Assembly (NCBI RefSeq): GCF_988242995.1
Contig: NZ_OZ547043.1
Length of the DNA stretch: 64,000 nt
Strand: one strand, 5' to 3'
Made by a program: the position numbers. Shown here one piece after another: positions 9,201 to 18,200 of the stretch (the first letter of the stretch is position 1; each line of letters starts with the position of its first letter).

Positions 9201-12200
9201 CGTGCTGAATCTGATTTTCCCACCAGAAAAACAGTAATTCACTAGCGGCGGTAAGATAATTACCGCCGCAGTCTCACCTCTTTCACCATTCCCACCTTGA
9301 GGATTGCGCGTAAATCGTGCATAACTCCCTTATGTGCATTTCACGGGATGGAAGACCATGAAATTTATTGGGAAGCTGCTTCTCTACATTCTCATCGCTC
9401 TGTTAGTGGTGATCGCTGGCCTCTATTTTCTTCTGCAAACCCGCTGGGGAGCAGAACATATCAGCGCATGGGTTTCCGAGAATAGCGACTATCATCTGGC
9501 CTTCGGAGCGATGGATCACCGTTTTTCCGCGCCATCTCATATCGTGCTGGAGAACGTCACGTTTGGTCGTGATGGCCAGCCCGCGACCCTGGTGGCAAAA
9601 AGTGTCGACATTGCGCTAAGCAGTCGGCAACTGACCGAACCACGCCATGTCGATACCATCCTGCTGGAAAACGGGACGCTGAATCTCACCGACCAGACCG
9701 CGCCGCTACCGTTCAAAGCCGATCGTCTGCAACTGCGTGATATGGCGTTTAATAGCCCGAATAGCGAATGGAAACTGAGCGCGCAGCGGGTAAATGGCGG
9801 CGTGGTTCCGTGGTCACCAGAAGCCGGTAAAGTGCTGGGTACGAAGGCGCAGATTCAGTTTAGTGCCGGATCGCTTTCGCTCAATGATGTTCCTGCCACC
9901 AATGTACTGATTGAAGGCAGTATTGATAACGATCGCGTTACGCTGACTAACCTGGGTGCCGACATCGCCCGCGGGACATTAACCGGAAACGCGCAGCGTA
10001 ACGCCGACGGCAGCTGGCAAGTGGAAAATCTGCGGCTGGCGGATATCCGTCTACAAAGCGAAAAATCGCTAACTGACTTCTTTGCGCCATTACGCTCTGT
10101 CCCGTCGTTGCAGATCGGTCGCCTGGAAGTCATCGACGCTCGCCTGCAAGGTCCGGACTGGGCGGTGACCGACCTCGATCTCAGCTTGCGCAACATGACC
10201 TTCAGTAAAGATGACTGGCAGACACAGGAAGGCAAACTGTCGATGAACGCCAGCGAGTTCATTTATGGTTCGCTGCATTTATTTGACCCGATTATAAACG
10301 CGGAATTTTCCCCGCAGGGCGTAGCGCTGCGCCAGTTCACCAGCCGCTGGGAAGGGGGCATGGTTAGAACGTCAGGAAACTGGCAACGCGACGGGAAAAC
10401 GCTGATCCTCGATGATGCGGCAATTGCCGGACTGGAATATACCTTGCCAAAAAACTGGCAACAGTTGTGGATGGAAACGACACCCGGTTGGTTAAACAGC
10501 CTGCAACTGAAGAGATTTAGCGCCAGCCGCAATCTGATCATTGATATCGCCCCTGACTTCCCGTGGCAGCTCACCGCGCTCGATGGTTACGGTGCCAACC
10601 TGACGCTGGTTACCGATCATAAATGGGGCGTCTGGAGTGGTTCGGCGAATCTGAATGCCGCCGCCGCGACATTCAATCGTGTTGATGTTCGTCGCCCGTC
10701 GCTGGCGCTGACCGCCAACAGCAGCACGGTGAATATCAGCGAACTGAGTGCATTTACTGAAAAAGGCATTCTGGAAGCCACCGCCAGTGTTTCACAGACG
10801 CCACAACGTCAGACCCATATCAGCCTGAATGGACGCGGTGTGCCGGTGAATATTTTGCAACAGTGGGGATGGCCTGAATTACCGTTGACTGGCGACGGCA
10901 ATATTCAGCTTACCGCCAGCGGCGATATTCAGGCCAATATCCCGCTGAAACCTACGGTTAGCGGGCAATTGCATGCTGTGAACGCCACAAAGCAGCAAGT
11001 GACTCAAACCATGAATGCAGGTGTCGTTTCCAGTGGCGAAGTTACATCGACGGAGCCGGTGCAGTAAATACGCGGGCGCTAACGGATATCAACGTTAGCG
11101 TCCCCGCTATTACCGCAAAACAGCATACTCACTACACAATAACCATTTCACCGGTTCATCTTCTTCTATCGCCGGAAAACGTCCTCCCGGCTCAAGAAAA
11201 TGGTTATCATGTTGGTCATCATTTACCATCGAAATTTCCCAGCCGAGAACAAACGCTTTTTCCGCCCAGAAGCGATGATACAGACGCGGCGGCAGGCAAA
11301 TGCCCTGCCCCGGCTTTAGCACCAGCGTTTCACCAGGTTTCACGGCACGCCGCTGACCATCAACACTCACGGTAATAACCCGCTGATCATCACAGAGATT
11401 GGCTTCGTTGGCCCAGGCCAACTGCATGCATAAGTCTCCACCGCCCCGATTGAGGATATCTTCCATTTTGTGGGTGTGAAAATGCCAGGGAGTCTGCTGA
11501 TCTTGTTGGATCTGCAACATTTTCTCAGCATACGGTTTTGGATATGCCGCCGCCCCCAGCGCGCCGTTGCGCATCGTTAGCAGTGTTAGTCCCGTTTGGT
11601 TGAAATCACCACGACCAAAATCGGTGATATCCCAACCGAGCTGTAAGTCGACCACTTCTTGCCAGTTATCCCGTTCCCGCTGCAGCCAGTCATCCACCGT
11701 AAAATAGGCGAACTCTGGCAAACAAACGCGGAAGGTCTGCGCAATGGCATGTGCTTTATCAATAACATAATTAATTTGTGAACGTTTCATTGGCTTCTCC
11801 GTTGCGCATAGCAAGCCAGGCAGCGCCACGCATTCCGCTACTGTCGCCGTGCTGTGCTTTTACAATGGGAGTGGTGAATTGATCGGTGAAAACCAGTGGA
11901 GCGACTTCTGCGTTCAGATCGGTGATAAGCAGTTCCACATTCGAAAGCCCGCCGCCGATGACAATCACGCCAGGGTCAACAACGTTAACGATGGTTGCCA
12001 GCGTGCGGGCAAGCTGTTGGCGAAAACGTGCCACCTGCTGCATGGCACAAACATCACCACGTTGTGCCAGGGTGACAATCGCCGCAGGAGTGAGCAAGTT
12101 ACCAGTCATCTGTTGATAGCGTTCACTAAAACCGCTGCCGGAAACAAACGACTCCACGCAGTTGTGTTTGCCGCAATAGCAACTGACTGATGGACCATCT

Positions 12201-15200: not shown

Positions 15201-18200
15201 AACAGCCCACCGATAATGGTGCTTAATACCGGCAACACCATGATTGGCATGAGTCCTTGCATCGACTGCGGCAGGCGAATATAGCGTTTAAGTAGCAAAA
15301 TGGTGTAGCCCACCAGGAAACCACCCAACATACCGCCAATAAATCCGGTATGGATTTGCCCACAGAGAAAGCCGACAATCAGGCCCGGGGCAAATCCGGG
15401 ACGATCGGCAATAGAATAGGCAATTGCCGCGCTAATCAGCGGCACAATCAGCCCCATTCCCCAGCCGCCAATCTGATTAAGCATCCACGGGATTGTTCCT
15501 GTTTTTTCACCAACATCTGTACCGCCAAGAACTTGCCCCAACGCAATACATATCCCGGCGGCCACAATAAGGGGTATCATCCACGAGATGCCGGTTAATA
15601 AATGTTTTTTAATTTCCTGTGAAACCGGAATTTTATTTTCTTTCATATTAAGATCCCTCCAGTATAAGGATCATTTATTTCCCAGTGATTTTTCGACCTT
15701 TTCAAGAAATTGAACGGGCGATTTAATGACGATCTCTGTCTTTACTCGCACAATGCGTTTATTGGTAAAACGTTCTTCTCCTTTTATTTTCACATCCACA
15801 GCAAGAATCACGACGTCAGCAGCAGAGATCTCTGCCGCCTGTAATTCGTTTTCTGTACCAATGGTTCCCTGGGTTTCAACTTTAATGGTGTGGCCCAGTG
15901 CTTTTGCCCCTTTAATTAACTTTTCACGAGCAATATAGGTGTGAGCAATACCCGCCGTGCAGGCGGCAACACAGACAATATTCATGATATACTCCCTGTT
16001 ATTTAGTAGACATCGGATTGTGCATACTGACTAAAGAGATCAATGATTTTTTGCGGGCTCGTCTCAACCAGCAATTGCGCTATGATGTCATCATCTGCAA
16101 GCGCGCCCGCGACCTGGGAAAGTAAACGGATATGAGTGGTATTTTGATCTTCAAGACGTACCGCAAATAAAATAATACAGCGTACGCTACTGCCATCCAG
16201 TGTTTCCCAGGGAATATCCTGCCGGGTACGCCCGATAGCCAGCGTGGTATTAATTACCGCAGAAGATTTACCATGCGGGATCGCAATATGATTTTCAAAA
16301 CCAGTCGAGCCTTCCGCTTCGCGCTGCCAGACATCTTTAATAAAGGTTTCCCGACAATCGATCGCGCCATCTTTTTTGAGAAGATTAGTTAATTCTTCAA
16401 TCGCCTCCGCTTTATTCGTCGCTTGCATATCTAAAATAACGCGATTCGTATTCAGGATTTTTGTTATGTCCATTCGTCATACCTCATAAAATTCTGACAT
16501 TAAATTTCAACGACCCGAGATGTCGCATGATGTAATTTTTCCGTAATCACCATTTCAGTGACTCGCTTAATATCGGCATCATTAAAAAAAGCGGTAACAT
16601 AAGCGACCGGCATAGTGACTGTAGGCAAATTAATGGTCGAAATAATCAGTTCGATATTGTCAGGCAAAACCTGTGATAAATTCGCTGCTGAAATAACATC
16701 AACAATCGTCCATTCAGGAAATGCTCGCAGAATACGGCTTTTCAGTAGATGCGAAGTTCCGATTCCGGTTGAACAGACCAGTAATACACGTTTACGGGCA
16801 ATTTGCCGCTCCATCGCAGCCTGAAAATGAACGGTCAGGTAACCTACTTCATCCTCGCTCACTGCATTCTCACCCCAGGTTTTAAATACCTGATTCACCA
16901 CATATTGCGTCAACCGCCAGACATCCGCTAATTCTGCTTTAATATCTTCCAGCAATGGATTACGGATATGAATGCGATAATTTAGTCGGTTAATCAGCGG
17001 CTTAATATGAACCAACAAGCCATCATATAATGCGCTGTCTTCACTAAAATCGCAGTCCACGATGTCACTGAATACCGTAATTAAACGCCAGGTAATCAGA
17101 CGCGCTTCATTGCTGGCCTGCATATGTGAAATAATGCTAACATCTTTTTGTCCATCAATCGCCACACCTGATGAAATGATATATTGATAAATAAACCAGA
17201 CTTCATCATCGGGCAATGTATGTGCAATTCGTTGTTCTATCTTATGAATCATCTGACTGGCAACATTAAAGATATTTTCATCATATTGCCTGGTTTGATC
17301 TTCTTCTCTGGATAACGCATTCCCGTGCGTGTTGCGATACATCATAATAAGGATGTGAGTAAAAATGTTAACGTAATAAGGCTCTCCCAAAGACCAACTT
17401 AATTCATTTTCCATATCCAGTAACAATGACTGGACAAATAACACCTCTTCTTCTCCAAAATAATGGACTAATGCTTTATAACTTCCGGGATCCAGACGTG
17501 AATACACGACACCTTGCGGCTCATTATGGTTAATAATGCCGTTAATCAGTAATGCCATTGCCTGTCGGACTTGCCCTTCACTACCTTCAATATGCGTACC
17601 ACTTGGGCTGCGGATCAATGATAACCCCAACGGCGCAAGCCAGGACTCAATCACTCTCAGGTCATTAACAATAGAGGCTCCACTGATAAAATAGCGCTCT
17701 GACAATTTACTGATCGACGTTTCATTCGGTGTTTCACTTAATAACTGCGACGCTATTTTAACGCGCCTGGCATTATTCATTACACCATCAATCTCTTCAC
17801 ATTCTGCTCCCAACAAATGATCAAGATGCAGCAAATCAGTAATATTCTTCGAGTCTAACATCACACCTGCGCCAGCACGCTTCTCAACGGTTATTCGCCA
17901 TTGTTCCAGCCATTGCTCAAGTATACGTAAATCACGTTGAATGGTTTTTTCCGAAACATTTAAATAGCCGGCAATCGTAACAATAGTCGTATATTCCCTT
18001 CGTGGTAAAAGGAATCGTAATAATCTGTTTTGTCGCGAGGTAATCATTTGCATTTTTTACCCTTATCACAGATTAAGAAGCCCCATGTGGAAGAGCTTCA
18101 GTTGCCATCTCTGAGGGTAAATATAAAGCAGAATAATTTCACAACAATACTAAAATCTGTCCGTAGTCCGGACATGTATAAAACAAAACGGGGCGGTTAA

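Follow-up and report, generated by a model that had tools for sequence, protein, structure and literature searches.

Two fructose-like phosphotransferase system (PTS) operons of pathogenic bacteria have been described that resemble a cluster of eight genes lying between yicH and yicI in a 64,000-nucleotide stretch of contig NZ_OZ547043.1 (NCBI RefSeq assembly GCF_988242995.1; the whole stretch is called the window here). The first, the frz operon, is region GR27 'yicH..yicI' of 7227 bp, which is common to strains of extraintestinal pathogenic Escherichia coli (ExPEC) and adherent-invasive E. coli (AIEC), including CFT073, one of the strains in which GR27 is complete, and is not found in K-12 (PMC12928451). 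That paper credits the original work with showing that fitness, adhesion and internalisation are promoted by frz and that the operon goes with virulent avian strains (PMC12928451), and another study describes an effect on the type 1 fimbriae switch, with a bias in fimS orientation (PMC8777976); fitness under stress is a further published phenotype (PMC8777976, PMC12928451). The second is lmo2133-2137 of Listeria monocytogenes, a fructose-like PTS operon presented as a homologue of an ExPEC operon promoting fitness and invasion and marked on the Listeria genome map as the cluster lmo2133-2138 (PMC2996996). We read the ExPEC operon cited there as frz, and because that paper links the Listeria and ExPEC operons, the breadth of the frz family is already known in outline.

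The locus between yicH and yicI of the window is likewise already described and is not a new system, being a named fitness operon associated in the literature with virulent extraintestinal E. coli. What is new here is a Citrobacter cluster at the same site, an invariant six-gene core, a pair of atypical aldolases, the separate locus of the O157 isomerase cluster, and an E155K substitution in the kinase of the window. The best explanation as a whole is that the cluster is frz and works in the way proposed below, a reading to which we assign a probability of about 0.8.

Identity and gene content of the yicH-yicI cluster

Eight intact, co-oriented open reading frames (ORFs) occupy positions 11110-18053 on the minus strand of the window, with short or overlapping junctions. 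Gene families were assigned with Pfam and NCBIfam models, the NCBIfam scores being set against curated cut-offs, and the two class II aldolases are called AldB (upstream) and AldA (downstream). In the order of transcription the genes are as follows.

16500-18053, minus strand: regulator of the PRD/HTH type, 517 aa (Pfam domains)
16003-16473, minus strand: PTS EIIA, fructose/mannitol type, 156 aa (PF00359, 120 bits; TIGR00848, 127 bits against a cut-off of 103)
15671-15985, minus strand: PTS EIIB, fructose family, 104 aa (TIGR00829, 99 bits against a cut-off of 77)
14555-15646, minus strand: PTS EIIC, fructose family, 363 aa (TIGR01427, 311 bits against a cut-off of 157)
13692-14543, minus strand: AldB, upstream class II aldolase, 283 aa (PF01116, 253 bits)
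12751-13611, minus strand: AldA, downstream class II aldolase, 286 aa (PF01116, 305 bits)
11771-12703 (mechanical ORF to 12736), minus strand: ROK sugar kinase, 310 aa (PF00480, 244 bits)
11110-11790 (mechanical ORF to 11829), minus strand: cupin of the D-lyxose/D-mannose isomerase family, 226 aa (PF07385, 290 bits)

An initial annotation of this DNA had described eight co-oriented genes of these families, forming an accessory, PTS-linked cluster between yicH and yicI that is missing from K-12. ORF calls, Pfam and NCBIfam confirmed the genes and their families, and in K-12 MG1655 yicH and yicI are adjacent, with a spacer of 52 bp. All eight proteins have the same lengths as the RefSeq coding sequences of CFT073 and differ from them by 1-10 residues each; the cluster is therefore intact, with nothing truncated, and the operon as a unit is 98.4% identical to that of CFT073 over 6945 bp. 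The first description of frz, reportedly by Rouquet in 2009 for the avian ExPEC strain BEN2908, is said to list in its abstract a PTS activator, fructose-family EIIA, EIIB and EIIC, two type II aldolases, a ROK kinase and a cupin protein, and the gene order and families found here agree with those reported for frz. We regard the identification of the cluster with the published frz operon of ExPEC as virtually certain.

The initial annotation had allowed that the genes might turn out to belong to a characterised operon of known substrate. They do belong to a named and phenotyped operon, which that annotation had missed, but not to one of known substrate: the citing papers examined report no frz substrate more than 15 years after the operon was described, and literature searches that also covered lmo2133-2137 and ketose-1-phosphate found none. 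Tagatose, psicose, sorbose, heptuloses and octuloses were considered as substrates and none could be supported from sequence; the earlier statement that the substrate is not evident is borne out.

A conserved pair of atypical class II aldolases

AldA and AldB were aligned with FbaA, KbaY, GatY and YdjI of E. coli, with the aldolases of O157 and Salmonella, and with nine orthologues of each copy, and were compared by the residue roles described for FbaA (PMC5434028). Equivalents of Asp109, His110, Glu174, His226, His264 and Asn286 are present in both AldA and AldB and in all 18 orthologues, which upholds the intact metal ligands initially reported for the two proteins. Three further positions were compared.

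Glu182 position: Gly in every AldA; a gap in AldB, in a loop not conserved between phyla; Glu in KbaY, GatY and the O157 and Salmonella aldolases
Asp288 position: Ser in AldA; Gly in AldB; Ala in KbaY and GatY
Arg331 position: Asn in all 9 AldA orthologues; variable in AldB; Arg in FbaA, KbaY and GatY; non-basic in YdjI

Glu182 of FbaA lies in a mobile loop and acts in proton transfer at C3 of dihydroxyacetone phosphate (DHAP) (PMC5434028). AldA has a Glu five residues after this position (VEGG), kept in 8 of 9 orthologues, and AldB is without a conserved Glu, the alignment of the mobile loop around Glu182 being inherently uncertain. Among the NCBIfam models, AldA scored 526 bits with the uncharacterised subfamily PRK08185 (cut-off 405) and 260 bits with the generic TIGR00167 (cut-off 216); AldB fell below the cut-offs of all models, and both proteins fell below those of the curated fructose-bisphosphate aldolase (FBA) and tagatose-bisphosphate aldolase (TBA) equivalogs (TIGR01859, TIGR01858, PRK12857 and related models). 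In Pfam, neither aldolase matches the GatZ/KbaZ family PF08013 and both match PF01116 only. On these comparisons neither aldolase looks like a standard bisphosphate aldolase.

AldA and AldB share 34% identity. The initial annotation had seen a tandem duplicated aldolase, and two adjacent class II paralogs are indeed present; a recent tandem duplication was rejected on the strength of the 34% identity and of the conservation of the pair across phyla. Comparative genomics instead marks AldA and AldB as an ancient obligate pair, conserved across three phyla. Within this pair AldB diverges about twice as fast as AldA, the identity to the window copy being 81% in Pantoea and 62% in Enterococcus for AldA, and 59% and 39%, respectively, for AldB. 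The initial annotation had also asked whether careful alignment would reveal lost catalytic residues in one copy. The metal ligands are retained in both, the Glu182 equivalent is in register in neither, and AldB, which has no substitute for Glu182 and evolves about twice as fast, fits such a loss in part.

AldB might accordingly be a non-catalytic partner of AldA, a stabiliser or specificity subunit analogous to GatZ and KbaZ though drawn from another family, and we consider this possible, at somewhat less than even odds. Every locus has the two genes side by side in one fixed order, and AldB combines its faster divergence with the missing Glu182 equivalent, a loop that is not conserved between phyla and Gly at the Asp288 position. 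However, Asp109, the three zinc histidines, Glu174 and Asn286 are kept in 9 of 9 AldB orthologues from three phyla, which is unexpected for a structural subunit; AldB belongs to PF01116 and not to the GatZ family PF08013, and its interaction with AldA is a prediction.

Conservation of a six-gene core

We scanned one genome per species, 100,044 species in all, with an alignment of the upstream aldolase as the query, and followed the scan with a tblastn matrix. This species-wide search with AldB recovered 71 loci, in which the order regulator-EIIA-EIIB-EIIC-AldB-AldA was invariant wherever the contig was long enough. The core so defined, which contains no kinase, occurs in enteric genera including Escherichia, Citrobacter, Klebsiella, Kosakonia, Phytobacter, Pantoea, Erwinia, Pectobacterium and Brenneria, and outside the enterics in Enterococcus, Pediococcus, Lactobacillus, Marinilactibacillus and Sebaldella.

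The kinase and isomerase genes follow a different pattern. Both accompany the core in E. coli, Klebsiella, Kosakonia and Phytobacter, the isomerase occurs without the kinase in many Citrobacter species, the kinase without the isomerase in Mangrovibacter and Brenneria, and Pantoea, Erwinia, Pectobacterium, Enterococcus durans and Pediococcus have neither. In Firmicutes and Sebaldella the core is followed by a short-type lyxose isomerase or by a different ROK kinase, the long isomerase type being that of the enterics, and one metagenomic variant carries the isomerase, a ROK kinase and a type I phosphomannose isomerase (PMI). By this distribution the kinase and isomerase are accessory genes, recruited repeatedly and independently, which argues for a free sugar, of the mannose/fructose (or lyxose/xylulose) type, as a product of the pathway. 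The pathway initially drawn for this locus included an isomerisation step; the isomerase is present here, but the step is not part of the core, kinase and isomerase being absent from many orthologous clusters.

Individual loci vary further. Many Citrobacter loci (L019-L027, L038, L040, with Superficieibacter) carry the isomerase gene directly after the second aldolase gene and are missing the ROK kinase gene, which other Citrobacter loci (L003, L029, L075) retain. The seven-gene Brenneria locus (L016, 6440-12757), made up of the core and the ROK kinase with no isomerase, is embedded in a nitrogenase (nif) gene cluster. On one metagenome contig (L017, 771-5470) a second PTS unit lies directly upstream of the frz-like cluster and comprises a fused EIIABC, one class II aldolase and a PRD regulator that has an EIIA domain of its own.

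The accessory kinase and isomerase

The ROK kinase is closest to the Mak-type manno/fructokinases, with 41% identity to K-12 Mak; its best NCBIfam match is the fructokinase model NF007108 (315 bits, below the cut-off of 443). The N-terminal DxGGT ATP motif is present as LDIGGTK and the zinc motif CxCGxxxCxE as CYCGKHNCVE. In the sugar-binding ExGH motif the window kinase carries E155K and reads KCGH (minus-strand codon AAA at 12239-12241, plus-strand T at 12241), and the kinases of CFT073, cryptic-clade Escherichia, Citrobacter, Raoultella, Klebsiella and Brenneria read ECGH, with Glu at 155. A 71-nt probe at codon 155 found no exact match to the window in any of 1605 complete E. coli genomes with the kinase gene, and one best hit that was aligned showed a single mismatch over the 71 bases, at 12241 (C, giving Glu). 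Either the substitution is a private mutation that is probably damaging or inactivating, or it is a sequencing error.

The cupin matches PF07385 over its full length (1-222 of 222) and its HFH, ED and LYH metal motifs align to 3KMH, with a score against the NCBIfam equivalog NF051472 of 271 bits, below the cut-off of 350. It is 49% identical to the solved O157 protein Z5688 (3KMH/3MPB), with the H-x-H...E...H motifs aligned; the structure of this D-lyxose/D-mannose isomerase was reportedly described by van Staalduinen in 2010. Z5688 is ECs_5070 of strain Sakai and lies between yjcS and phnP, beside an ABC transporter, a PfkB kinase and one class II aldolase, with a histidine kinase and a 235-aa regulatory protein (ECs_5067) also encoded there. 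In O157 genomes the cluster query finds a match in yicI only, and their yicH-yicI site is therefore empty. The mention in the initial annotation of a similar O157:H7 cluster with a lyxose isomerase thus holds for the isomerase, which exists as Z5688, but not for the cluster, which is a different one at a different locus. Another cupin, P0075, with 50% identity, was tried as a candidate for Z5688 and rejected, having no match in E. coli genomes.

A lyxose-type isomerase 62% identical to the frz cupin is found in a Salmonella enterica island beside a phage-type integrase (L006, 7598-14541), together with an MFS sugar transporter, a mutarotase, a class II aldolase, a PfkB kinase, a zinc alcohol dehydrogenase and a DeoR regulator. 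By gene content, the triad of isomerase, kinase and class II aldolase is recurrent, but the frz, O157 and Salmonella clusters are different systems.

The permease, the regulator and the promoter region

EIIA, EIIB and EIIC all score above the cut-offs of their fructose-family models (TIGR00848, TIGR00829 and TIGR01427), and in the translations EIIA carries the AIPHG histidine motif and EIIB the CTAGIAHT active-site cysteine motif. In Pfam the regulator has HTH_11 and Mga-type HTH domains, two PRDs and a weak EIIB-like PTS_IIB domain (24.1 bits against a cut-off of 23.6). Neither Pfam nor NCBIfam found a CAT RNA-binding domain in it, regulators of the BglG/LicT type being about 280 aa long, and Pfam found no C-terminal EIIA-like domain in its 517 aa, a separate EIIA gene being next to it. 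A sequence search of the PDB matched LicT and GlcT to the PRDs only (about 190-414) and AtxA/AcpB to the N-terminal HTH. The domain architecture points to a DNA-binding activator of the PRD type and not an RNA antiterminator of the BglG/LicT type, and because HTH DNA-binding domains are present and no CAT domain was detected, the RefSeq name 'BglG family transcription antiterminator' for 16500-18053 is probably a misnomer.

An alignment of the 300 nt that precede the regulator gene in 11 enterobacterial genera revealed a conserved region with the following elements.

18118-18260, minus strand: conserved putative promoter/operator region as a whole
18258-18243, minus strand: putative CRP-like site TGCGA-N6-TCACG
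18225-18217, minus strand: conserved block TGTGATCTG
18174-18158, minus strand: 17-nt palindrome TGTCCGGAC-TAC-GGACA, then GATTTTAGTATTGT
18147-18142, minus strand: putative -35-like element TTGTTG
18125-18120, minus strand: putative -10 element TATATT

The palindrome (18158-18174), which can also be written TGTCCGGA-N-CGGACA, is essentially invariant upstream of the regulator gene in the 11 genera and is conserved even in genomes in which the cluster lies away from yicI; a Shine-Dalgarno sequence, TAAGGG, is conserved across the same genera. A simple consensus promoter scan upstream of the regulator gene found no promoter and flagged the palindrome as terminator-like, and no Rfam family was found in the leader region. 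We infer an activator-dependent promoter, with the palindrome as the candidate operator of the regulator.

Proposed working of the operon

The general function of the cluster, regulated PTS uptake followed by aldol cleavage, is highly probable. From its domains and the conserved operator, the regulator would be a PRD activator whose activity is set by PTS phosphorylation, and a single promoter upstream of its gene would be driven by this activator, probably together with cAMP-CRP. By family membership EIIA, EIIB and EIIC would form a fructose-family permease that imports and phosphorylates a sugar, most likely a ketose at C1. Comparative genomics and the residue patterns suggest that the aldolase pair acts directly on the PTS product, with AldA as the main catalyst and AldB as a partner or a second specificity, and a canonical hexulose 1,6-bisphosphate is an improbable substrate, because neither aldolase has a counterpart of Arg331 of FbaA. 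The repeated independent recruitment of the Mak-like ROK kinase and the lyxose/mannose-type isomerase suggests an accessory module that would turn a free aldose or ketose (mannose/fructose or lyxose/xylulose type) that the pathway releases or leaves over into a glycolytic sugar phosphate.

Cleavage of a monophosphate is the form of aldol cleavage to which we tentatively lean. In a fuller version, which we put forward as a conjecture that may well be wrong, the core would be an uncharacterised route extending from Enterobacterales to lactic acid bacteria and Fusobacteria, in which a ketose, possibly a rare or higher-carbon one, is phosphorylated at C1 by the PTS and cleaved as the monophosphate, by the aldolase pair without Glu182 and Arg331 equivalents, to DHAP and a free aldose that is then salvaged by a recruited isomerase, ROK kinase or phosphomannose isomerase.

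A bisphosphate route would instead convert the ketose 1-phosphate to the 1,6-bisphosphate, by the housekeeping 1-phosphofructokinase FruK or by the ROK kinase where present. Cleavage by the aldolase pair would then give DHAP and glyceraldehyde 3-phosphate, on the model of the tagatose pathway with GatY/KbaY. A precedent exists in E. coli evolved to use D-tagatose, for which a fructose PTS, FruK and a class II tagatose-bisphosphate aldolase suffice (PMC10101011), and AldA, with its zinc and Asp109 equivalents intact like those of AldB, exceeds the cut-off of the generic model TIGR00167, named 'ketose-bisphosphate aldolase'. Nevertheless, the Arg331 and in-register Glu182 equivalents are missing in 18 of 18 orthologues, the specific FBA and TBA equivalog models all score below their cut-offs, a PfkB-type 1-kinase occurs in the clusters of 0 of the 71 loci, and the ROK kinase is missing from most clusters and resembles hexose 6-kinases. 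We therefore hold the bisphosphate route to be rather unlikely and prefer cleavage of a monophosphate, a choice between two modes that sequence cannot decide.

Several considerations weigh against the working proposed here. The argument from the missing Arg331 equivalent depends on that residue acting in FbaA as the distal-phosphate ligand, and AldA keeps a Lys after the N-I-S-S-D-M segment, as do KbaY and GatY, that could be a ligand of a second phosphate. The FruK precedent makes a core without a kinase compatible with the bisphosphate route. Enzymes of the lyxose-isomerase family act on free sugars and are an awkward fit after a PTS. The operator, promoter and transcript assignments are predictions, and the gene list and experiments for frz are taken from what is reportedly in the original description and from citing papers.

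Occurrence in E. coli and origin of the locus

Of 5426 complete E. coli genomes, 1601 (~30%) have the cluster in full, always on the chromosome; it is missing from K-12, BL21 and O157, a presence/absence polymorphism within the species. Its borders were placed by BLAST of an empty-site strain (L002) against the window, in which homology stops at 11068 and restarts at 18325.

11069-18324, minus strand: cluster-specific segment (the frz locus) relative to K-12-type genomes (BLAST of the empty-site strain)
18303-18333, minus strand: yicI terminator hairpin, the right-border marker, of which empty-site strains also have a diverged form (sequence read)
11072-11107, no strand assigned: imperfect G+C-rich inverted repeat GCGGGCGCTAACG-GATATCAA-CGTTAGCGTCCCCGC (sequence read)

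The extra DNA amounts to ~7.23-7.26 kb, its right limit falling within the yicI terminator hairpin (about 18302-18324). The inverted repeat at 11072-11107 lies between the convergent yicH and cupin genes and is a probable bidirectional terminator. The G+C content within the operon is a mosaic, the regulator, EIIA and EIIB genes having 41-45% and the EIIC, aldolase, kinase and isomerase genes 50-55%, like the flanks; the low G+C of the first three genes hints at mosaic ancestry.

Recent insertion of a genomic island between yicH and yicI in pathogenic lineages would account for the polymorphism, for the lower G+C of three of the genes and for the other sites at which the cluster lies in Raoultella, which has eight genes in the same order, and in Brenneria. 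Against it, Citrobacter also carries the eight genes, identically ordered, at the yicI/yicH site, and Klebsiella aerogenes has them in the same order adjoining yicI. Between the window and CFT073, the 98.4% identity of frz is in line with the 97.5-97.8% of yicH and yicI; between E. coli and Citrobacter, the protein identities of 76-96% for frz (EIIC at 96%) overlap the 82-96% of the flanking YicH, YicI and XanP. Direct repeats, insertion sequence (IS) elements and an integrase were looked for at the cluster borders and none were found, on which ground an IS- or integrase-mediated island was rejected. We consider recent acquisition doubtful. Because the site is the same in Citrobacter and the divergence equals that of the flanks, the locus may be an ancestral enterobacterial one that was lost from the K-12-like, BL21 and O157 lineages, which fits at least as well as insertion. 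The word 'inserted' in the initial annotation is thus doubtful.

Very unlikely, finally, is a sensor in which the Frz PTS and PRD regulator report a host-derived sugar and, via PTS phosphorylation, alter for instance the type 1 fimbriae switch, with carbon yield secondary: the published frz phenotypes are stress fitness and shifted fimS orientation and not growth on a defined sugar (PMC8777976, PMC12928451), and the citing papers examined give no substrate more than 15 years on, but the enzymes are under clear purifying selection together with the transporter in three phyla, including the non-pathogens Pantoea, Kosakonia and Pediococcus, as for a catabolic pathway, and only carbon flow would give the accessory kinase, isomerase and PMI genes a purpose.

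The rest of the window

The gene for tRNA-Sec (selC) lies at 22351-22441, ~4 kb from the operon, and is followed at 23081-26121 by MFS, EamA and NlpA genes whose families and lengths fit the K-12 order setC-yicL-nlpA, with no integrase; in GF60, the closest complete genome, an integrase island occupies selC, unlike in the window. Beyond nlpA are genes for a SipB-like protein (27671-29452), a type III secretion tip-complex protein (30639-31988) and a winged-helix/TPR regulator (32191-33888), and an inverse autotransporter of 3709 aa on the minus strand (33940-45069) with 22 Big_1 and 21 invasin D3 stretches. The segment 27671-45069 may resemble the eip/eilA/air locus of enteroaggregative E. coli. 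A full-length match to the istR small RNA lies at 62143-62272 on the minus strand (Rfam RF01400, 147 bits).

Comparison with known systems

The unit to study is the six-gene core common to Listeria, Enterococcus and plant-associated enterics. Its aldolases do not appear to be ordinary bisphosphate aldolases, and the kinase and isomerase point to a by-product of the mannose/fructose type. Identifying the sugar would account for a nutrient niche tied to the fitness of ExPEC in serum and gut and would give a function to a widespread orphan PTS.

With frz of ExPEC the cluster of the window shares the locus yicH..yicI, the length of ~7.2 kb and the eight-gene content. The differences, in a comparison made with CFT073, are in alleles only, among them the window-private kinase E155K.

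The O157 Z5688 cluster resembles frz in its cupin family and in an adjacent sugar kinase and class II aldolase without an Arg331 equivalent. It differs in the 49% identity of its isomerase, in its yjcS-phnP locus, in having an ABC transporter in place of a PTS, a PfkB in place of a ROK kinase and a single aldolase that has the canonical loop Glu, and in carrying a 235-aa regulatory protein and a histidine kinase where frz has a PRD activator.

GatABC-GatYZ of the galactitol/tagatose pathway and KbaYZ of the GalNAc pathway, both of K-12, provide the likeness of a PTS permease combined with a PF01116 aldolase that needs a second, differently built partner. However, GatZ and KbaZ belong to PF08013, GatY and KbaY have the Glu182 and Arg331 equivalents that the frz aldolases are without, and GatABC is a galactitol-family permease, whereas that of frz belongs to the fructose family. 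YdjI of K-12, the L-glycero-L-galacto-octuluronate-1-phosphate aldolase (PDB 6OFU), is likewise a PF01116 protein without an Arg331 equivalent, and by RefSeq annotation its substrate is a ketose-1-phosphate, that is, a monophosphate. It differs in its ~30-35% identity, in keeping the loop Glu and in its association with MFS transporters and a PfkB-type kinase instead of a PTS.

The regulator compares with the PRD activators MtlR, LicR and ManR and with the Mga/AtxA type in its HTH_11/Mga domains, its two PRDs and an EIIB-like domain with a Cys motif, and, as with the PRD activators of Firmicutes, its gene lies beside the PTS that it presumably controls. MtlR, LicR and ManR carry a C-terminal EIIA-like domain, which the frz regulator is without.

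The Listeria cluster lmo2133-lmo2137 has, from its published description, fructose-family EIIA, EIIB and EIIC and two class II aldolases and matches the six-gene core of Enterococcus, Pediococcus and Lactobacillus; lmo2138 is presumably the regulator. It differs from the cluster of the window in its Gram-positive host and in carrying the core without a ROK kinase or an isomerase.

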